Source: Candidatus Methanomethylicia archaeon (lineage in GTDB: Archaea; Thermoproteota; Methanomethylicia; Culexarchaeales; Culexarchaeaceae). Taken from it: DNA of 64,000 nucleotides. The DNA is taken from positions 192,001 to 256,000 of the forward strand of contig JAVYVS010000001.1 of the NCBI GenBank assembly GCA_038727515.1, read 5' to 3'. Below, one piece after another: positions 3,238-46,374 of this stretch; the first letter of the stretch is position 1, and each line of letters starts with the position of its first letter. The notes under the pieces are model-generated. The model was given only the letters and a program-made list of their open reading frames with translations, did not search any database and was not told the origin of the DNA. The position numbers were made by a program, and so were the translations under genes.

Positions 3238-4014
3238 TTATTTAAGGTTTATTGGTTGATTTGGTAGATACCCTGTTAATTCTATGATTTTTATTATTTC
3301 TTCTTCTCTCTTCTTTGTGTATGTTAATTTTCTTTTTACATTGTCTATCCATGTAATATCGCTTCTCTTAGAATATTTTTCATAATATCCTTCTTCTTTG
3401 AGTTTTTCTATCATTATTTTTGCTGCTTCTATTAATTCATTGGGATCTGGTTCTCTATATTGGTTTATTGAGAGCATTATTTTTGTTGGTAATCTAGGTC
3501 TTATTGGCGGGTTTTCATCTGGATAACCAATGCATATTAGGAATAATGGTAGAACTCCATTTGGCAATTTTAATAGTTCAATTAACCTTTTGTTTGCTAA
3601 GGCTGTTCCAACGTAAACTGATGATAATCCAAGTGATTCTGCTGCTATCACTATGTTTTGTGCTGCTAGTGTTGCATCAATTATGGAGAATAATTTTACT
3701 TCGTATCCACATTCCATTTTTTGGTTATTGCATTCATCTATTGCATCTACTATTTTGAGTATTTTTCTTACGTCTGCACATACTACTAGTGTTATTGGGG
3801 CTTCAAGTATGAATGATTGTTTACCACATGCTTCATATACTTCTTTCCTTATTTTATCGTCTTTTACCCATATTATACTGTATGTTTGTAGTGAGCATGC
3901 TGTTGGAGCTCTTTGTCCTGCTTCAATTAATTTATAGACTATTTCTTCTGGTATTGGTGTGTTTTTAAATTTCCTTATTGTCCTTCTATTCATTATTACT
4001 TCTAGTGTTTTCAT
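3238..4014 (-). CDS. Nitroreductase family (NfsA/Frp-like) flavoprotein
   Basis: RRTIRKF, APTACSLQ, DATLAAQN..AESLGL, IGYPDE..RPRLP. Start ATG 4014 or GTG 4023. Confidence 0.88.
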   Translation of the reverse strand: MKTLEVIMNRRTIRKFKNTPIPEEIVYKLIEAGQRAPTACSLQTYSIIWVKDDKIRKEVYEACGKQSFILEAPITLVVCADVRKILKIVDAIDECNNQKMECGYEVKLFSIIDATLAAQNIVIAAESLGLSSVYVGTALANKRLIELLKLPNGVLPLFLICIGYPDENPPIRPRLPTKIMLSINQYREPDPNELIEAAKIMIEKLKEEGYYEKYSKRSDITWIDNVKRKLTYTKKREEEIIKIIELTGYLPNQPINLK

Positions 4015-5977
4015 GTTTTTCACCTTTATCTTTTGATTTTAGATATTTATCAAACCATTCCATCATATACTTCAATCTTTTTACTCTGTTTTTAGGTTTT
4101 CCAGATCTACTGAATACATGGCTTCCCTCTGTGAAGAGTAATAGTTTTGCTTCTTTTCTAAGATATTTTAGTGCTGTATAGAAGAGTAGTGCCTGGTCTA
4201 TGTAGCATCTATAGTCTTCCATGCTATGTATTATTAGTATTGGTGTTTGAACTTTATCTGCATGTGTTATTGGTGATTTATTTATCCATTCTTCTCTATT
4301 TGTCCACCAGTCTCCACCTATCTGGTCTGGTACAAAGTGGAATCCTATGTCTGTGGTTCCGAATTCTGCTAGCCAACAGCTTATTCCATTTAATGATACT
4401 GCTGCTTTAAATTTGTTTGTTTGTGTTATTATCCAGTTTGTCATATATCCTCCATAACTTATTCCTGTGATGCCTATTCTTTCTTCATCTATTGATGGAT
4501 AGGTTTTTGTAATGTAGTCTACCATTTCCATGAAGTCTTGGTAGTCTCTTTCACCATATTTCCTTCTTATGTCTGCAAATTCTTCACTGTATCCTCCGCT
4601 TCCTCTAATGTTTGCGTATACTACTATGTAGCCATTTGATGCGAAGATTTGATGTTCAAACATTAATGAATATCCAAATGTGCTTTTTGGTCCTCCATGT
4701 ATGAATATTATTGTGGGATATTTCTTCCCCTCCACATAGTTTACTGGTTTTATTAGCCATCCTTCAATTATTTCTCCATCTGATGCTTTAAATTGGAATT
4801 TCTCATGTGTTTGTAAGTATACTTCTTTTAGTATTTCATCGTTGAAGTTTGTTAATTTCCTTTCAATCCCATTTTCCATTACGTATATTTCTGCTGGTGT
4901 ATTTTCTGTTATTTTTGTGTATACGATTTTTCCATTTTTTACTTGGAAGTTGTCTATTATGAAGTTTCCTACAACTACTCCCTCTATATCCTCTGTTTTT
5001 AGATTCATTTTGTATATATTGTGTGTTCCACCTTTTGTTAATGTGAAGTATAATTCTTCTCTTTCTATTATTGGTGGTTGTGGTGATTGGTAAGGTCCTC
5101 TAACATCATAGTATATACTTAGATTTGTTTGATATCCTGTTTTACCTGTTAAATTCCTTATTTCTCCTGTGCTTATGTTTATCATCCATATTCCTTCATG
5201 TGTTGGATAGCCCCTTTTGTAATCATTTCCTTTGAAGTATATTCTTTCATTGCAGGGGCACCATGCCATTGGTCCTATACCCATGTCTGGATGATCTAAT
5301 CTTATTGTTTCTCCATTTTCTAAGTCTATTATATGTAGTTTTTGTTTTCTTGGTTCAAGATAGTTTGTTGTTGCTGCAAAAGCTATTTTCTTCCCATCAT
5401 TAGAGTATTTTGCCTCTATTATATTCATTTCTCCATGGGTTAATTGATTTATTTCTCCAGAATTTACTTCTATTTGGAATAGATGTATTTGTATGTGATG
5501 TGTAAATCCAATTCCATCAAACCATATTGGTATTCTGTCTATGAGTCTTGCTTCAGAATCTATTTCTCCACTTATCACCGGTGATCTGTATAGTATGTAT
5601 CTCCCATTTGGACTCCATGATGGTTGTATTATTCCAGTTTTACTTTTAATTATTAGTCTTGGTTCTCCACCCTTTATTGGTAGTAGCCATAATTCATTTC
5701 CAGGTTCTCTCTCCTTTATTGTTCTCTTTGATAAGAAGAGTATATATTTTCCATTTGGGCTCCATCTAGGCCATGTATCTGTGAAGCCATTTGTTGATAA
5801 TTCTATTTCCCCTGTTTCTGAGTTTATAATCCATATTTTTGAGTTGTATGTATTTCCTTCTTGATCTGGTTTTAGTGTTACGAAGGCTATGTATTTTCCA
5901 TTTGGGGATATTTGTGGGTCGTTTACTGATGTAAATCTATTGTAATCTTCTATTTTTAGTGGTCTCATAATTTTCAT
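3986..5977 (-). CDS. S9C family acylaminoacyl peptidase
   Basis: WSPNG beta-propeller repeats, IHGGP, GISYGG nucleophile elbow, D(YRC) and GSH catalytic residues. Confidence 0.93.
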   Translation of the reverse strand: MKIMRPLKIEDYNRFTSVNDPQISPNGKYIAFVTLKPDQEGNTYNSKIWIINSETGEIELSTNGFTDTWPRWSPNGKYILFLSKRTIKEREPGNELWLLPIKGGEPRLIIKSKTGIIQPSWSPNGRYILYRSPVISGEIDSEARLIDRIPIWFDGIGFTHHIQIHLFQIEVNSGEINQLTHGEMNIIEAKYSNDGKKIAFAATTNYLEPRKQKLHIIDLENGETIRLDHPDMGIGPMAWCPCNERIYFKGNDYKRGYPTHEGIWMINISTGEIRNLTGKTGYQTNLSIYYDVRGPYQSPQPPIIEREELYFTLTKGGTHNIYKMNLKTEDIEGVVVGNFIIDNFQVKNGKIVYTKITENTPAEIYVMENGIERKLTNFNDEILKEVYLQTHEKFQFKASDGEIIEGWLIKPVNYVEGKKYPTIIFIHGGPKSTFGYSLMFEHQIFASNGYIVVYANIRGSGGYSEEFADIRRKYGERDYQDFMEMVDYITKTYPSIDEERIGITGISYGGYMTNWIITQTNKFKAAVSLNGISCWLAEFGTTDIGFHFVPDQIGGDWWTNREEWINKSPITHADKVQTPILIIHSMEDYRCYIDQALLFYTALKYLRKEAKLLLFTEGSHVFSRSGKPKNRVKRLKYMMEWFDKYLKSKDKGEKHENTRSNNE

Positions 5978-6018: not shown

Positions 6019-7035
6019 TTATGATTGTGTTAATTCATCTATTAATTTATTGTATATTTCTATGGCTTCTTCTTCACTTTTTACTCCTTTTATTATCATT
6101 CTTCCATTCTTGAATATGCTTACATCCTTTTCATCATATTTTATTGCTATCATAATTTCCGTTGATATTTTTATTTGGTATCGTTTAGATAGTTTTTCTC
6201 TAATTTCCTTTATGTTTATCTTCACTGGTTTTATTGGATTTACATTTATCGTGTTTCTTCCACATAGCCATGTTATTTTTGGTTGTGTTATTTCTATTTC
6301 GGTTTTTTGTTTGCATACTGGACAATTCTCTCTTTTGCTTATGTTTATTTTGTGGAATTCCATGGTTTTGAAATCACATACTAATAGTTTTCCCTTTAAT
6401 CCATTTTCTATTCCTGCTATTAGTTTTATTGCTTCCATTGCTTCTATGGATCCAATTATTCCTGGTGTTGCCCCTATTACTCCTCTTGTTTCACATGTGG
6501 GTATTAGGTTGTCATCTATTTTTGGGAATATGCATTCTAGGCATGGTGTTTCTGGTGGATGTATTACTGTTATATTTCCTTCTAATCCTATTGCTCCTGC
6601 GAATATGTATGGAATATTCTTTTTAACGCTTACTCTATTTATTATATATCTTGTAGTCATATTGTCGAGTCCATCCACTATAACGTCTACACCATCTAAG
6701 AGCTCTTCTGCATTTAATTGGTTTAAGTGTTCTGGTATTGGTTCTACTTTTACTTGTGGATTCATTTTTGATAGTTTTCTTGCTGCTACTTCAACTTTTG
6801 GTTGACCAATTTCACTTGGATCGTATAGTATTTGTCTATGTAGATTGTGTTCTTCAATTATGTCGTGATCTATTATTCTTATATGTCCGATTCCTGCTAA
6901 GGTTAGGTATATTGATGCTATGCTTCCAAGTCCTCCAATTCCTACAATAGCCACTTTTGCTTTCATTAATTTTCTTTGTCCTTCAATTCCAAGTTCTCTT
7001 AATGCTATCTGCCTTGAATAATATTCACTTATCAT
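6019..7035 (-). CDS. ThiF/MoeB/HesA family adenylyltransferase (E1-like) with C-terminal extra domain
   Basis: YSRQ, GIGGLG, NLHRQ, DGLDN, CLEC/CPVC Zn motifs, TCETRGV active Cys; LCGR..FKNGRMIIKG tail. Confidence 0.9.
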   Translation of the reverse strand: MISEYYSRQIALRELGIEGQRKLMKAKVAIVGIGGLGSIASIYLTLAGIGHIRIIDHDIIEEHNLHRQILYDPSEIGQPKVEVAARKLSKMNPQVKVEPIPEHLNQLNAEELLDGVDVIVDGLDNMTTRYIINRVSVKKNIPYIFAGAIGLEGNITVIHPPETPCLECIFPKIDDNLIPTCETRGVIGATPGIIGSIEAMEAIKLIAGIENGLKGKLLVCDFKTMEFHKINISKRENCPVCKQKTEIEITQPKITWLCGRNTINVNPIKPVKINIKEIREKLSKRYQIKISTEIMIAIKYDEKDVSIFKNGRMIIKGVKSEEEAIEIYNKLIDELTQS

Positions 7036-8528: not shown

Positions 8529-8651
8529 TCCCTAGAGTTTAATGTAACTATGCTTTAATTCTTAAATTACAAGAGTATATTATCTACATTTTAATGTTTT
8601 GGTTTTGGATAGGTATATATTGTTGTTTACATGTTGTTATAATGTGTTTTT

Positions 8652-9515
8652 ATGAGGTTGACTGTGGATTTTGTTAAGTATCATGGATGTGGTAATGATT
8701 TTATAGTTGTAGATGAATTGGATGGTGAAGTTGTTCCTGAAAAATTTAAAGGTTTATTTTCAATGAAGGTTTGTCGTAGAAGGTTTTCTATTGGTGCTGA
8801 TGATGTTCTATTTATTGTTCCCTCCACGTGTGGTGCTCATGGTTTTATGAGGGTTCTTGAGCCTGATGGTACTGAAGCTGAAATGTGTGGTAATGGTTTA
8901 CGTTGTGTAGCCAGTTACTTATCTGAGAAATTTAATTTAAATGAATTGAAAATTGAAACTAAAGCTGGAGTTTTAAATGTGTGGAAGGTTGAAGATGGAT
9001 GGTTTAAAGTGAATATGGGTGTACTAAGGAAGACTTTTGGGGAATTGAAAAATTATGTTAATCTAAATTTTAGGGATGATGAAGAATTAATTGCTAAACG
9101 TTTAAAACTCCCATTACTGGGTGAAATTGAATTATCAATTGTTAATACCGGCGTCCCACATGTTGTAGTCTTTGTAGATGATGTAGATAAAATTGATTTA
9201 AACCTATATGCTGAAGCTATTTCAAAAAATAAAACATTATTTCCAGAAGGTATATGTGTGAATGTTGTTGAAGTTTTGAATGATCATTCCATTAAGGTTA
9301 GAACTTATGAAAGTGGCGTTTGGGATGAAACTTATGCTTGTGGAACTGGATCTACTGCTTCAGCTGCAGTAGCATATATACTTGGAAAAATTAAAAGTAG
9401 AACTGTTGATGTACATGTTCGTGGAGGATTACTAAAAATTATTGTTGATGACCCGTTATATATGATTGGACCTGTAGAAAAAGTTTTTACAGGTAGAATA
9501 ACTATTGAAATCTAA
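8652..9515 (+). CDS. dapF: Diaminopimelate epimerase (DapF)-family PLP-independent racemase; substrate pocket atypical
   Basis: KYHGCGNDF, EMCGNG, GVPH, ETYACGTG with both catalytic Cys. Several DAP-binding residues are substituted (see findings). Confidence 0.8.
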   Translation: MRLTVDFVKYHGCGNDFIVVDELDGEVVPEKFKGLFSMKVCRRRFSIGADDVLFIVPSTCGAHGFMRVLEPDGTEAEMCGNGLRCVASYLSEKFNLNELKIETKAGVLNVWKVEDGWFKVNMGVLRKTFGELKNYVNLNFRDDEELIAKRLKLPLLGEIELSIVNTGVPHVVVFVDDVDKIDLNLYAEAISKNKTLFPEGICVNVVEVLNDHSIKVRTYESGVWDETYACGTGSTASAAVAYILGKIKSRTVDVHVRGGLLKIIVDDPLYMIGPVEKVFTGRITIEI

Positions 9516-9541: not shown

Positions 9542-10234
9542 TTATTTGCTTTTCTTCATGTAATCTAATGCTACTGCCACTACTAATGCTATTGCTGCTA
9601 TTACACATACGTATGGAGCTGGGTATGTGAAGTATAGGAATCTTATTCTCCCAATGAATAATGAAATTCTACTCATAATTGTTAATCCGAAGCTTCCTCC
9701 AAACCCTGCTACAAGAGTGTATCTACCAATTTTAGCCACAGTGTTTAATGGTCCTTTAAATTCTGCTGTGAAGTAGAAGTAGAATAATGCTGTTAATACT
9801 CCTATTGCCACTAATACTCCATCCAATGGCTTTGGTAGTAGGACTACTGTAGTTGTAGATTCACTTATTGTGGATCTAATTTGTTCAAGGAATTGCGTTT
9901 TTATGTATCTTGCCACTATTGTTCCAATGCTTGTTCCTAATACTATGGCTGTTGGATACCTGTATAGGTAGAAGTATTTTCTTGTGAAGAAGAAAATGTA
10001 TAGTAATCCAATTGGTACTGTTAGCCACCACCACCATTGCCCTTTAGAAACATAATCATAGAGGTATACCCATGCTGTGTCTACACTTATTAGTGTTGTA
10101 TATGCTGCAGCGGCACCCATGTATGCATGTTCTGCAATTCTGAAAAACCTATTTTCCTTGTAAAGCCAACTGAATAACATTAACGTTATTCCAGCGGCAA
10201 CTATCGTTACTATAGTATCCATACTTAGGGACAT
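9542..10234 (-). CDS. Uncharacterised polytopic membrane protein (4th gene of DUF6754 module)
   Basis: About 6-7 hydrophobic segments, YKENRFFRIAEH; abuts the upstream gene. Confidence 0.75.
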   Translation of the reverse strand: MSLSMDTIVTIVAAGITLMLFSWLYKENRFFRIAEHAYMGAAAAYTTLISVDTAWVYLYDYVSKGQWWWWLTVPIGLLYIFFFTRKYFYLYRYPTAIVLGTSIGTIVARYIKTQFLEQIRSTISESTTTVVLLPKPLDGVLVAIGVLTALFYFYFTAEFKGPLNTVAKIGRYTLVAGFGGSFGLTIMSRISLFIGRIRFLYFTYPAPYVCVIAAIALVVAVALDYMKKSK

Positions 10235-11077
10235 TTACATCCTCCTCCTAGATAGGAAGTATCCTATATTCCCAATTATTATGAAGATTACCGTTACTAG
10301 ATGTCCTAGGGATTGAGCATCCATTCCTGCTGCACCTTCTCCAGGTCTTTTAACTAGGATCTCGTATTCTGCTGCACCTCTCAATCCATTACAGAATCCA
10401 ACTATTTTATCTGGGTAGTATGGGTACATTCTTGAGACTAGTACTGCTCCTACAGCTCCACCAACTTTTGTTCCATAGACATCTGTGAGTTGTCTAACAA
10501 CCCAGTCTACTGAGCTGTTTCCGAAGTATATTGCTATTGCCCAATCTTTTGCTGTTCCTGTGGGTAGGTCTTGGAAGAATGGCATTTTCTTTAAATCATT
10601 GCCATATGCATCTTTACCTGTATAGAATACGTCTGCTGCTAATGCTGCTAATCCAACCTCATATTGTGGTATATATCCTAAATTAACATATTTCTTTCCA
10701 TAGTCTGGATGATCATTTGAAGCTCCTAAAATTGTTTTCATGGTTGATTCTATATATGGTACAGCTTCTGTTCGTGCTGCAAAGAATAAAACCCTTAAAC
10801 CTTTATTTACACAGTGTTGGAAAATTGCAAGTTCTGAGGGGTAGCATTCTGCTGCTGCAGCTGGGCTTTGATCATCTATAAATACTACTATGCTTCCTGG
10901 TGGAAGTTTATCTAGGAAGTTGTATAATCCAAGTGTTTCTGCACTATATTTTCCAAGGGGGATTCCTATTGGCCTCAGTATTGGTACGCTTACTGCTATC
11001 CAAACTAATAGGTATATATATCTTACATCTATGTTTTGTATTTTCTCCCATATTGTTTCTGGTTTTTTACTCTCCAC
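10235..11077 (-). CDS. Uncharacterised membrane-anchored alpha/beta-domain protein (3rd gene of DUF6754 module)
   Basis: N-terminal TM, soluble domain (YVNLGYIP, GLRGAAEYE), C-terminal TM after GMDAQSLGH. GTG start at 11077 follows a G-rich SD. Confidence 0.75.
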   Translation of the reverse strand: MESKKPETIWEKIQNIDVRYIYLLVWIAVSVPILRPIGIPLGKYSAETLGLYNFLDKLPPGSIVVFIDDQSPAAAAECYPSELAIFQHCVNKGLRVLFFAARTEAVPYIESTMKTILGASNDHPDYGKKYVNLGYIPQYEVGLAALAADVFYTGKDAYGNDLKKMPFFQDLPTGTAKDWAIAIYFGNSSVDWVVRQLTDVYGTKVGGAVGAVLVSRMYPYYPDKIVGFCNGLRGAAEYEILVKRPGEGAAGMDAQSLGHLVTVIFIIIGNIGYFLSRRRM

Positions 11078-11726
11078 GACCCATCCACCCCCTCTCATAT
11101 CCTAAGAGCATTCGTACATATAGTGCTAAAGTGGCCAGTAATCCTGATATTATTATAACTCTTGCTTCTGCTCTAACCCAAACGTTATTTACCCAATCTT
11201 TTAGCGGCACGAATCCAGGCCATATGAGTTCTCCTATTGGTGCATTTCCAAGCATTGCTATTATTCCAGCTAATAATAGTACTGTTGCTTCTACACTTCT
11301 AGCTCTAAAGGCTCTGTAGGCTGCTGAAGCTATGAAGAATACTAGTATAGAGTATATTGTCGAATCTCCTGGTGCTACTATTGCATTGAATACTTGAGTT
11401 ATGCTTGGTTCTACTGATGGTTTTATCCCTTGGAATGCATATCTAGCTAATCCCCATACTAATGGTACCCATAAGCATATGAGTAATACCCAGCTTTCAA
11501 TTCTTTTAGGTTCTCTTTGGATCCTCCTTGCGTGAATCCTGGTTAATAGTGTTACTGAAATTATTGCTGCAAAAGTTCCAATTATTGCCTGTGCCTTCCT
11601 AATATCTGCTGCCAGATTATTTATTGTTGGTTGTAGTACAAGTGTATCCATTGCTGTTATAAATGTTAAGATTACCATAATCATCCATGGTATATATCTT
11701 CTAATGACTATTGACATTTCATTCAT
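11067..11726 (-). CDS. Uncharacterised polytopic membrane protein (2nd gene of DUF6754 module)
   Basis: About 6 TM segments; FFIASAAYRAFRARSVEATVLL..MLGNAPIG. Confidence 0.75.
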   Translation of the reverse strand: MNEMSIVIRRYIPWMIMVILTFITAMDTLVLQPTINNLAADIRKAQAIIGTFAAIISVTLLTRIHARRIQREPKRIESWVLLICLWVPLVWGLARYAFQGIKPSVEPSITQVFNAIVAPGDSTIYSILVFFIASAAYRAFRARSVEATVLLLAGIIAMLGNAPIGELIWPGFVPLKDWVNNVWVRAEARVIIISGLLATLALYVRMLLGYERGWMGRGE

Positions 11727-11730
11727 CCCC

Positions 11731-12510
11731 CTATATATTTAATAGATCATAAAACCATCTATTTCCAAATGCCCAGAATATTAATCCAATTATTGTTAAT
11801 GCTAATCCAATTAGCCTTATAATGTCTTGTCCAAATATTGTCCCTATTTGTTCTGGCGTTCCTGCAACATAAGCTCCTGCAGTTATTAATTCTTCACTTA
11901 TTAATGTGTAGTCGCATGTGGCTATGAAGAATGGTATTTGATAGCTATTTGTTGTTCCAGCTATTTGTATTGCTCCAGCTCTAAATCCTGCTTCAGCTAA
12001 TATTAGTGATTCCGCTGCGAAGTATCCAAGTAATAGGTTTGCAGCAACTTTTTCTCTAAGTATTAATCCCATGGCTCCACTGGCGTATGCAAATTGCCTA
12101 TTGGAGAGCCATATAACATTTTCAGGTCTAAATTCATCTGGTTTTCCAGCCATTGTATATGCATTTTTAATTAAGTCTCTGGCAACTGGTTCTACTGTTG
12201 GATCTGAAAATGTAAATAGGAATCTAACACCATATTCTGCACATTTTTTAGCTACGTATTGGCATATACTTAATCCTGCAATGACCTGTGTATCTCCAAC
12301 TCCACCTAAACCAACTGTGTAATGTACTGGTCTACCCATTTCAGTGGCTCTGCCTATCGCTTCATCCAGGGCATCCATCCCTGGAAGTTTCCTAATTTTT
12401 GGTTTAATTACACCCTTCTTTGTAAAGTAGACCGCTAGGAATATTATGATTATTGAAGCAATGAACATCACTGTGGAACCAATATAGGTAGACCTAATAC
12501 TTAAACTCAT
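11731..12510 (-). CDS. DUF6754-domain membrane protein (1st gene of module)
   Basis: IRKLPGMDALDEAIGRATEMGRPV, FAAESLILAE, QIPFFIATCDYTLISEEL recognised as the DUF6754 signature; terminal TMs. Start moved to ATG 12510. Confidence 0.75.
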   Translation of the reverse strand: MSLSIRSTYIGSTVMFIASIIIIFLAVYFTKKGVIKPKIRKLPGMDALDEAIGRATEMGRPVHYTVGLGGVGDTQVIAGLSICQYVAKKCAEYGVRFLFTFSDPTVEPVARDLIKNAYTMAGKPDEFRPENVIWLSNRQFAYASGAMGLILREKVAANLLLGYFAAESLILAEAGFRAGAIQIAGTTNSYQIPFFIATCDYTLISEELITAGAYVAGTPEQIGTIFGQDIIRLIGLALTIIGLIFWAFGNRWFYDLLNI

Positions 12511-12636
12511 GTATGACTCTCTCCTTAAAACTTTTTCAAAAATGTAGTTCTCGTATATTTTTCTCAACTAATAGCTATTTATATTTTTCCTAAATTTTTC
12601 AAATTTTTTTCAATGAAAAGTTTAAATGAGTAAATT

Positions 12637-45198: not shown

Positions 45199-46374
45199 AT
45201 GATGGTTATGGATGTATCTAAGTATGCTAGGAGAGAACTTTTACAATTAGGTGAAAGACCAGCAACTAGAGCTCCTCTACCAAAAATGGAAAACATAATA
45301 AATCTAGGTGCTGGAGACCCAGATTTTAATCAACCTAGAATCGTAATGGAGAAAATTGTGGAAGCAATGGAAAAGGGATATACACATTACATGTTTGAAG
45401 GACTACCAGAATTCAAAAGAGCAGTTGCAGAATACTATTCAAAATATGGGGTAAAGATAGATCCAGATACCCAGGTTATACCAACATCAGGTGGAGGACC
45501 AGCAATATTCCATATACTTGCAGCATTAATAAATCCAGGGGATGAAGTAATAATATTTGATCCAGCATATCAAGGATATCTAAACCCAATAAGATACTTT
45601 GGTGGAGTAATAGTTAGAGCAAAAATGAAGAAAGATGAAAAAGGATATTTTAGACCAGACATAGAAAACTTGAAAAACGTAATAACAGAGAAAACAAAGC
45701 TTCTAATAATATGTAATCCAGATAATCCCACTGGATGCGTATTCAATGAAGAAGAATTAAATAGAATAGCAGAATTATCCAAGAAACATGACTTCCTAAT
45801 ACTATCAGATGAAATATACAATGAGTTTATATGGGGTGATAGAAATCATATAGCCATAATGGGTTTAGAGGGGATGATGGAGAGAACAATAGTGGCTATG
45901 AGCTTCTCAAAAATGTTTGCTTGGACTGGATGTAGATTAGGATATATAATAGCTTCACCGGAAATGGCGAATCTAATATCAAGAGTCCCATTGGGAATAT
46001 CTCCAGCACCAGTACCATTCCAATATGCGGGAGCATACCTATTAAGGGAGGGATGGGAATTCAATAAGATGATGAGAAGAGAATATGAGAAGAGGATAGA
46101 TTACTGTGTAAAGAGGTTAAATGAAATCCCTGGAATAAGATGCGTATATCCAGAAGCAACCTTCTACCTATTCCCAGAAATATCAGAAACAAAACTAAAT
46201 TCAGTAGAATATGCAAAGAGATTAATGGCAGAAGAAGGAGTAAGAGTAGTGGCAGGTTCAACCTTTGGATCTATGGGTGAAGGACATGTAAGATTAGCTC
46301 TAGTAGTACCCATGGAGAAACTTGTGGAAGCAATGGATAGAATAGAGAAATTCCATAAGAAGATAATGAAGTAA
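45199..46374 (+). CDS. Class I/II PLP-dependent (aspartate-type) aminotransferase
   Basis: GDPDF, NPDNPTG, SDEIY, SFSKMFAWTGCRLG. Confidence 0.93.
   Translation: MMVMDVSKYARRELLQLGERPATRAPLPKMENIINLGAGDPDFNQPRIVMEKIVEAMEKGYTHYMFEGLPEFKRAVAEYYSKYGVKIDPDTQVIPTSGGGPAIFHILAALINPGDEVIIFDPAYQGYLNPIRYFGGVIVRAKMKKDEKGYFRPDIENLKNVITEKTKLLIICNPDNPTGCVFNEEELNRIAELSKKHDFLILSDEIYNEFIWGDRNHIAIMGLEGMMERTIVAMSFSKMFAWTGCRLGYIIASPEMANLISRVPLGISPAPVPFQYAGAYLLREGWEFNKMMRREYEKRIDYCVKRLNEIPGIRCVYPEATFYLFPEISETKLNSVEYAKRLMAEEGVRVVAGSTFGSMGEGHVRLALVVPMEKLVEAMDRIEKFHKKIMK

Follow-up and report, generated by a model that had tools for sequence, protein, structure and literature searches.

A DapF-family protein with an altered distal pocket in Culexarchaeales: a candidate racemase of basic amino acids

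The stretch of DNA analysed here, called the window throughout, comprises 64,000 nucleotides of contig JAVYVS010000001.1 from a Candidatus Methanomethylicia archaeon of the order Culexarchaeales. The gene at positions 8652-9515 of the window encodes a protein of 287 residues, P0001, that belongs to the family of diaminopimelate (DAP) epimerase, DapF. P0001 is a non-biosynthetic derivative of DapF. Judged from alignment, all four ligands of the distal carboxylate of DAP (N64, N157, N190 and R209 in E. coli numbering) are lost, and three acidic residues (D51, E70 and E220) stand in the predicted pocket. Since P0001 conforms to DapF in profile, fold and catalytic residues and departs from it at the distal carboxylate site and in its pathway context, it is described here as a DapF-family derivative and not called a diaminopimelate epimerase. 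Tentatively, and with a confidence that falls somewhat short of even, it is regarded as a racemase of a basic amino acid such as lysine or ornithine, with a substrate and a direction of use that we infer.

Family, fold and distal pocket of P0001

The open reading frame runs uninterrupted from its ATG to a TAA, and in a profile search it was the single DapF-family gene of its genome (1.59 Mb, 93.6% complete). P0001 scores 172.5 bits, over two domains, on the Pfam DAP_epimerase model PF01678 (cut-off 34.7). When it is compared with solved structures by HMMER, the best matches are all DapFs, led by 9mro (E = 4.6e-46, 161 bits). The O-ureidoserine racemase 7vdy (77 bits) and the histidine racemase 9cr1 (20 bits; E = 0.003, over the C-terminal 70 residues only) lie far below. 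P0001 also falls under the cut-offs of the histidine-racemase (HisR/CntK) model NF052224 (24.9 against 400 bits) and of the bifunctional DapF/glutamate racemase model NF038284 (134.5 against 350 bits). The AlphaFold2 model, built from a 60-sequence alignment, has a predicted local distance difference test score (pLDDT) of 95.3 and a predicted template modelling score (pTM) of 0.91, and presents a pseudo-symmetric pair of alpha/beta domains, the active site lying between the two. Foldseek superposes this model on solved DapFs with TM-scores of 0.82-0.86 at 29-35% identity (0.85 for both 9mro and 3ejx). In its top 26 ranks, among the 22 matches listed, all are solved DapFs except the O-ureidoserine racemase DcsC (7vdy, TM 0.85).

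In DapF, as summarised in PMC8225329 after Pillai 2006, the reacting end of the substrate is held through its carboxylate by G74, N75, G218 and S219 and through its amine by N11. At the other end, E208 together with Q44 binds the distal amine, and the distal carboxylate receives hydrogen bonds from N64, N157 and N190 and a salt bridge from R209. A preliminary description of the gene, made from its sequence, had given R209, N64, N157, N190 and E208 the same roles as this summary. A MAFFT alignment of P0001 with E. coli K-12 DapF (31.7% identity) shows that both catalytic cysteines are kept (C73 as C79, C217 as C230), as are G74/N75 (G80/N81), G218/S219 (G231/T232), N11 (N15), H159 (H170) and E208 (E220). 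The HMMER alignments to the solved DapFs 9mro, 5ha4 and 3ejx agree with these equivalences, and the Cys and Gly of the first catalytic motif are invariant in the 60-sequence alignment. P0001 therefore resembles DapF (H. influenzae 2GKE/1GQZ, E. coli 4IJZ, cyanobacterial 9MRO) in its two-domain fold, its Cys/Cys two-base apparatus, its alpha-carboxylate and alpha-amine ligands and its retained E208. It differs at Q44 (D51), N64 (E70), N157 (V168), N190 (C202) and R209 (S221). The motifs quoted in the preliminary description (EMCGNG with Cys79, ACGTG with Cys230, GADD, LEPDG, GVPH, ICVNV and YESG) are all present, and its five substitutions and its retained E208 are borne out by the alignment. 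Its claim that the carboxylate site is lost also stands, all four ligands being replaced and no compensating Lys or Arg having been gained when the clade of P0001 is aligned with its sister clades.

The five changes are not equally informative. Residues were tabulated in the 120 best matches from a set of 5.8 billion proteins and in the 150 nearest cluster representatives at 50% identity. Among these representatives R209 (142/150), N190 (145/150) and E208 (149/150) are conserved, S209 and C190 being found in two each. The majority state is glycine at position 44 (114/150, with Q44 in only eight) and valine at position 157 (75/150), and E64 occurs in 28. Moreover, an archaeal DapF with G44, Q64, V157, N190 and R209 is encoded directly downstream of lysA (locus L054). 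This locus came from a search of genome contigs with patterns drawn from the alignment of the acidic-pocket clade; since these patterns are universal DapF motifs, the 80 loci returned were generic DapFs of at most 42% identity. Given that V157 prevails among the nearest relatives, that G or D at position 44 and E64 typify a large archaeal subclade, and that a DapF with Q64 and V157 is encoded in a lysA-dapF operon, three of the five changes count as lineage background, and the earlier presentation of Q44D, N64E and N157V as a rewiring particular to this gene is not upheld. On these tabulations, only N190C and R209S are distinctive, and the loss of N64 and N157 is weakly diagnostic, as both positions vary inside the DapF family.

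In a phylogeny of 192 sequences built with FastTree and rooted on E. coli, in which five-letter codes give the residues at positions 44, 64, 157, 190 and 209, a stepwise path leads from DEENR (P0017 and many others) through DEICR (P0009) to DEVCS in the clade of P0001. The DEVCS state is shared by eight cluster representatives (P0001 and seven others, the most divergent at 75% identity) and by three further genomes of the family; the fixed differences from the sister clades include E157V, R209S, L215Y and D71E. The C190/S209 pair is also present in P0041 (GQECS), nested with support in a Thermoplasmata GEENR clade, and thus had an independent origin there. Further losses of R209 in the acidic-pocket subclade are seen in P0147 (A), in P0149 (I) and in a C190/K209 group. 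The notion that E157 and R209 form a compensating charge pair lost together was ruled out, P0041, P0147 and P0149 keeping an acidic residue at position 157 without R209. Across the S209 clade the catalytic residues and the altered pocket are invariant and the tree branches are not inflated. The pairwise Nei-Gojobori ratio of nonsynonymous to synonymous substitution rates (dN/dS) is 0.08-0.19, including within-genus pairs with unsaturated dS (0.14-0.38), and the gene is therefore under purifying selection. The reading frame of its orthologues is intact in every genome examined; the orthologue from another family of Culexarchaeales (genome G009) is 59% identical to P0001. This G009 protein is itself 99.65% identical to one that NCBI assigns to Candidatus Culexmicrobium cathedralense, which places the P0001 genome in Culexarchaeales, in the other of its two families. 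The conservation of the pocket and the convergent C190/S209 pair support a shift of the enzyme away from DAP.

Diaminopimelate and lysine genes in Culexarchaeales and related archaea

An account of Culexarchaeia in which lysine and DAP go unmentioned portrays them as hyperthermophilic, anaerobic generalists that take up peptides and amino acids and ferment them (PMC9723716). The absences reported below come from profile searches, in all six frames, of genomes with a completeness of 90-99% (99% for G003, of the same order), and the class survey covered 40 relatives, 11 of them other Culexarchaeales genomes and 29 from the rest of the class. Aspartate-semialdehyde dehydrogenase (Asd) was not found in the P0001 genome with a model that matches in 14 of 14 control genomes, nor, except for a single fragment on a contig that looks foreign, in the 11 other genomes of the order, whereas it is present in all 29 genomes of the rest of the class. 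The distribution of the DapF-like gene is complementary (9/11 in the order, 0/29 outside it). LysA is encoded in 10 of the 11, and outside the order only weaker LysA-like matches, below cut-off, were obtained in one other family. Canonical DapB was not found across the order except on the same foreign-looking contig. In the P0001 genome the DapB C-terminal domain was not found, the best match to the DapB model being an Ord-like dehydrogenase, and neither DapL (top score 248 bits, cut-off 593) nor Ddh was detected by profile search. Two DapA-like aldolases score at cut-off, and the LysX model of the alpha-aminoadipate (AAA)/LysW route gives a partial match only (151 bits, cut-off 276). Among the genes that the preliminary description had singled out for a genome check (dapA, dapB, dapL and lysA), only lysA and the two borderline dapA-like genes were recovered. 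The one aminotransferase of this type encoded in the window, a class I enzyme, was considered as DapL and rejected as a generic aminotransferase, since it reaches only 237 bits against the DapL2 cut-off of 593 and 105 bits on the plant-type DapL model. The pathway context of DapF, i.e. DapA and DapB with either DapL or DapD/C/E and then LysA, is represented here by LysA; Asd, DapB and DapL were not found. An order without Asd, canonical DapB and DapL does not make DAP de novo, and P0001 is consequently not a biosynthetic DapF. The complementary pattern of Asd on the one hand and of DapF-like and LysA genes on the other suggests an order-wide loss of the aspartate-family pathway and a reliance on salvage.

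The foreign-looking contig belongs to G009, whose estimated contamination is 8%, and is either foreign or a recent transfer. It carries a canonical asd(fragment)-dapB-lysA-dapF cluster, of which the DapF is 40% identical to P0001 and the LysA only 35% identical to the LysA of the order.

The LysA of the P0001 genome is canonical (457 bits). Its gene lies ~350 kb from that of P0001, in keeping with the earlier statement that no other dap or lys gene is nearby. In LysA, the arginine of the specificity helix is a ligand of the meso-DAP carboxylate (PMC7857480). The full set of meso-DAP ligands (K54, R271, R307, Y311 and CES; E. coli numbering) is kept in every genome of the order, in S209 and R209 families alike, so that LysA remained unchanged while the DapF-like pocket changed. 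Directly upstream of lysA lies a DppA-like D-aminopeptidase gene (269 bits, cut-off 430), and this pair is found in 4/4 genomes of the P0001 family as well as in two genomes of the sister family. The two genes may form a module by which DAP peptides from peptidoglycan yield lysine. As meso-DAP is used directly by LysA, no epimerase is needed for its salvage.

The acidic-pocket subclade extends to Thermoplasmata, where LysA and DapB were checked in two genomes. The genome holding P0050 (GEENR), G042, is a single contig of 1.42 Mb with one DapF-like gene, no DapB and no LysA (best match 58 bits); LysA and DapB were likewise not found in G041, the genome holding P0041. The function of the subclade is therefore not dependent on LysA. 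In three Thermoplasmata members, ~55% identical to each other, the DapF-like gene is part of a conserved cluster. In order, it holds genes for two oligopeptide ATP-binding cassette (ABC) ATPases, for a DmpA-type peptidase of family S58 (present in two members) and for an M20 peptidase, then a divergent Amidohydro_3 gene (D-aminoacylase family), the DapF-like gene, a convergent Aminotran_3 gene and two CoA-transferase subunit genes. Elsewhere, the P0147 gene (A209) follows an M20 peptidase gene and is next to Opp permease genes, and the P0041 gene follows an M1 aminopeptidase gene. The genes of the C190/K209 group (DEECK; P0057 and P0078, which also have N159) are located between CapK-like adenylate-forming ligases in Wzx/Wzy polysaccharide clusters. 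This location shows that repurposing within the acidic-pocket subclade is real, and the group, judged from its gene context, probably supplies a D-amino acid for glycan decoration.

Proposed activity and competing explanations

By analogy, P0001 would work most like PddB/DabR of Streptoalloteichus hindustanus, while belonging to a separate and much more DapF-like lineage. PddB is a DapF homologue in which E208 is kept, N64, N157 and N190 are replaced and R209 is a valine; it is a strict pyridoxal 5'-phosphate (PLP)-independent racemase of 2,4-diaminobutyrate that has no DAP activity and rejects Lys and Orn (PMC8225329). As far as the described residues go, P0001 matches this pattern, with a non-basic residue at position 209 and the proximal ligands kept in both proteins, and the PddB substrate, a diamino acid without a distal carboxylate, makes it the closest functional analogy. 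However, PddB is an actinobacterial enzyme of secondary metabolism that works with a polymer synthetase and bears only weak similarity to DapF, whereas P0001 is far nearer to true DapFs and has gained the acidic D51 and E70. The retention of E208, the loss of four carboxylate ligands with no base gained and the precedent of PddB together argue for a shift away from DAP. Two other repurposed two-cysteine racemases of the DapF fold, DcsC (7VDY) and CntK/HisR (9CR1), are far less similar to P0001 in sequence and belong to dedicated biosynthetic clusters, although DcsC and DapF superpose equally well on the model. The reaction proposed for P0001 is that of Lyr, the lysine racemase of Proteus mirabilis, but Lyr has an alanine-racemase-type fold, requires PLP and is unrelated to P0001 in fold and chemistry (PMC3485190). 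A full-text literature search yielded no report of a PLP-independent racemase of lysine or ornithine, and the PddB authors named cofactor-free lysine and ornithine racemases as still undiscovered in 2021 (PMC8225329).

In the proposed mechanism, P0001 would no longer recognise the zwitterionic far end of DAP and would interconvert the D- and L-forms of a free amino acid whose side chain is cationic and about as long as that of lysine, with lysine itself as the first candidate and ornithine as the second. The thiolate/thiol pair of Cys79 and Cys230 would remove and return the alpha-proton from opposite faces, with the alpha-carboxylate bound by Gly80-Asn81 and Gly231-Thr232 and the alpha-amine by Asn15, as in DapF. 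Glu220 (E208), Glu70 and Asp51 would hold the side-chain ammonium, and Val168, Cys202 and Ser221 would line the space where the distal carboxylate of DAP would otherwise bind. The enzyme may serve in salvage by a peptide-fermenting hyperthermophile unable to make lysine de novo, where D-isomers that stem from necromass, from bacterial walls or from thermal racemisation would be converted by it to L-amino acid that the cell can use. LysA would provide a parallel and separate route from scavenged meso-DAP to lysine.

Several observations weigh against this reading, and most of them favour a second explanation, in which P0001 is still an LL-/meso-DAP epimerase that acts with LysA in a two-enzyme salvage of peptidoglycan DAP to lysine, the pocket changes being tolerated drift or thermoadaptation. 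We consider this explanation a substantial possibility, though a less probable one. P0001 is the sole DapF homologue of its genome and scores 239.6 bits on the NCBIfam DapF equivalog TIGR00652, well over the cut-off of 114.65. The DapF-like gene and LysA, with all its meso-DAP ligands, co-occur across the order and are both missing from the rest of the class, as expected of a two-step module from DAP to lysine. The DppA-like/LysA pairing, seen in six genomes of two families, fits the use of peptidoglycan peptides and is the strongest argument pointing to DAP as a continuing metabolite here. Within P0001 itself, E208 and all proximal ligands are kept, and Ser221, Cys202, Asn204 and Tyr228 could still form weak hydrogen bonds with a carboxylate. 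Furthermore, R209S occurs alone in P0229, a DapF whose gene overlaps dapA in a translationally coupled operon on a single metagenomic contig of 3.1 kb. Against DAP epimerase activity, four carboxylate ligands are gone at once, the pocket holds three acidic residues but no base, and PddB, in which this pattern of losses recurs, shows no DAP activity. Peptidoglycan mostly supplies meso-DAP, the direct substrate of LysA, LysA did not change along with the DapF-like pocket, and close relatives in the subclade occur in genomes without any LysA. As for P0229, it is otherwise canonical (G44, N64, V157 and N190), and its Ser209 is either a sequencing error or a natural R209S variant of DapF.

The genes flanking P0001 offer no hint of a substrate, which also counts against a lysine or ornithine racemase. 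A further explanation is that the substrate is neither DAP nor a simple basic amino acid but, for example, histidine, an amino acid that is neutral or contains sulfur, one that is N-acylated or linked in a peptide, or one bound for a cell-surface glycan. This alternative appears improbable. The DapF fold has already been retuned to O-ureidoserine (7vdy) and histidine (9cr1), the related DEECK subclade resides among CapK-like ligases of polysaccharide clusters, the P0001 gene is divergently paired with a GT2 glycosyltransferase gene in an arrangement kept in the sister genus, and Val168, Cys202 and Tyr228 render part of the pocket less polar. Yet the match to the histidine-racemase model is negligible, three acidic residues at the distal site point to a cationic group, and the GT2 gene is on the opposite strand, its pairing being absent from the sister family, with no ligase or tailoring gene adjoining. 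That P0001 is a decaying or catalytically dead remnant left by the loss of the DAP pathway is very improbable: the loss of the upstream pathway and of specificity residues would fit, but the frame is intact in every genome examined, the Cys pair and the proximal ligands are invariant, the structure model is confident and neither the dN/dS values nor the branch lengths indicate relaxation. The reading of P0001 as a lysine or ornithine racemase, already offered by the preliminary description, is partly supported; it draws on the lost carboxylate ligands, the missing de novo DAP pathway and the PddB precedent, and is weakened by the co-occurrence of LysA and by the fact that no pathway consuming D-lysine or D-ornithine was found in the searches made.

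These searches covered lysine and ornithine fermentation. KamA was not found in three Culexarchaeales genomes (G000, which is that of P0001, G003 and G007). The KamD/OraE domain (PF09043) was not found either, a weak result as the control of that search gave no match. The Ord-like gene (2,4-diaminopentanoate dehydrogenase-like; 349 residues, 319 bits, cut-off 400) has a DapB-type N-terminal domain and is conserved in the order. A link to ornithine fermentation through it was rejected in view of its housekeeping setting and of the outcome of the weak PF09043 search; its product might be a non-canonical DapB or an unrelated amino-acid dehydrogenase. KamA-family genes occur near the Thermoplasmata DapF-like homologues, where adjacent thiolase, HMGCS-like and DUF35 genes resemble the mevalonate-pathway trio. 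A link to lysine fermentation was rejected as well, the Thermoplasmata genomes being without Kce/BKACE, the Culexarchaeales without KamA, and no coherent pathway emerging. The P0001 genome also encodes a protein similar to Kce, the 3-keto-5-aminohexanoate-cleavage enzyme (331 bits, cut-off 382), whose gene is in one operon with that of a class IV (branched-chain/D-amino-acid) aminotransferase and overlaps it by 4 nt. Among five genomes tested, the BKACE family was found only in that of P0001, its relatives being without it.

A cofactor-free lysine or ornithine racemase would add a new specificity to a fold already studied in depth and, if thermostable, would offer a practical catalyst for D-lysine. 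It is a bolder and rather unlikely proposition that P0001, perhaps with the whole archaeal 'DapF' subclade with an acidic pocket (E64/E157), is the first PLP-independent lysine/ornithine racemase and defines a cofactor-free salvage of D-amino acids in peptide-fermenting archaea. P0001 and its relatives are named diaminopimelate epimerase everywhere, while the genomes checked are without Asd and canonical DapB and two Thermoplasmata are also without LysA; automated calls of a DAP route that rest on 'dapF' are therefore wrong for these archaea. If P0001 acts on lysine or ornithine, such 'dapF' calls mislead pathway reconstruction in these genomes. The orphan DapF-like gene, the LysA/D-aminopeptidase-like pair and the order-wide loss of Asd suggest that these archaea of hot springs and vents gain their lysine from recycled D-amino acids and bacterial cell-wall material.

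Genomic neighbourhood

The features discussed are located in Table 1. The P0001 gene is preceded by an AT-rich region shared with the divergent GT2 glycosyltransferase gene, in which TATA-like stretches ~30 nt and ~8 nt 5' of the ATG form a putative promoter. On its 3' side it converges, as the preliminary description had it, on four minus-strand genes of a DUF6754 module. Since these downstream genes are convergent, the P0001 gene looks monocistronic. The gene order GT2, P0001 and two DUF6754-module genes is conserved within the family but not beyond it, and is uninformative as to function. No poly-2,4-diaminobutyrate synthetase gene was seen nearby among the open reading frames of the window.

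Table 1. Location of the P0001 gene, its key codons and the other loci discussed (window positions unless a genome, contig or locus is named)
Feature	Position	Strand	Basis or remark
DapF-fold two-cysteine PLP-independent epimerase/racemase gene, P0001	8652..9515	+	Open reading frame, Pfam, TIGR00652, AlphaFold2, Foldseek, dN/dS
Asp51 (Q44 position)	8802..8804	+	Alignment, tree; common to the nearest archaeal clade (P0009-P0023), which still has R209
Glu70 (N64 position)	8859..8861	+	Alignment; typical of a large archaeal subclade (98/104 members in the tree set)
First catalytic Cys79 with Gly80-Asn81 (E. coli C73-G74-N75)	8886..8894	+	Alignment, PMC8225329; catalytic base and alpha-carboxylate ligands
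Val168 (N157 position)	9153..9155	+	Alignment; Glu in sister lineages, Val the normal state in methanogen DapFs
Cys202 (N190 position)	9255..9257	+	Alignment, tree; rare state
Glu220-Ser221 (E208-R209)	9309..9314	+	Alignments; distal-amine ligand kept, carboxylate salt-bridge Arg lost
Second catalytic Cys230 with Gly231-Thr232 (E. coli C217-G218-S219)	9339..9347	+	Alignments
AT-rich intergenic region, 123 nt, shared with the divergent GT2 gene	8529..8651	+	Sequence and layout of open reading frames
DUF6754-module genes (four)	9542-12567	-	Convergent with P0001
Class I aminotransferase gene	45289-46350	+	Profile scores
S9-family peptidase gene	3986-5977	-	
ThiF-family gene	6019-7035	-	
DppA-like D-aminopeptidase and lysA pair (outside the window)	G000:C1:550575-552200 (locus L006 1492-3619)	-	Profile scores
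Ord-like dehydrogenase gene	G000:C5:9309-10358 (L036)		Amid diphthine synthase, V-ATPase subunit D and proteasome genes
Kce-like and class IV aminotransferase genes	G000:C2:44801-46552 (L137 8802-10552)	-	
asd(fragment)-dapB-lysA-dapF cluster	G009:C10:3-6194 (loci L023, L026, L032)		
Thermoplasmata GEENR-type DapF-like cluster	L047 1241-10266; L130 1944-9383; one further contig		
DEECK DapF-like genes among CapK-like ligases	L043 8573-12000; L138 4608-8408		

Just upstream of the GT2 gene, the window further encodes a peptidase of the S9 prolyl-oligopeptidase family that includes a beta-propeller, and an E1-like protein of the ThiF family that ends in a TBP-like domain.

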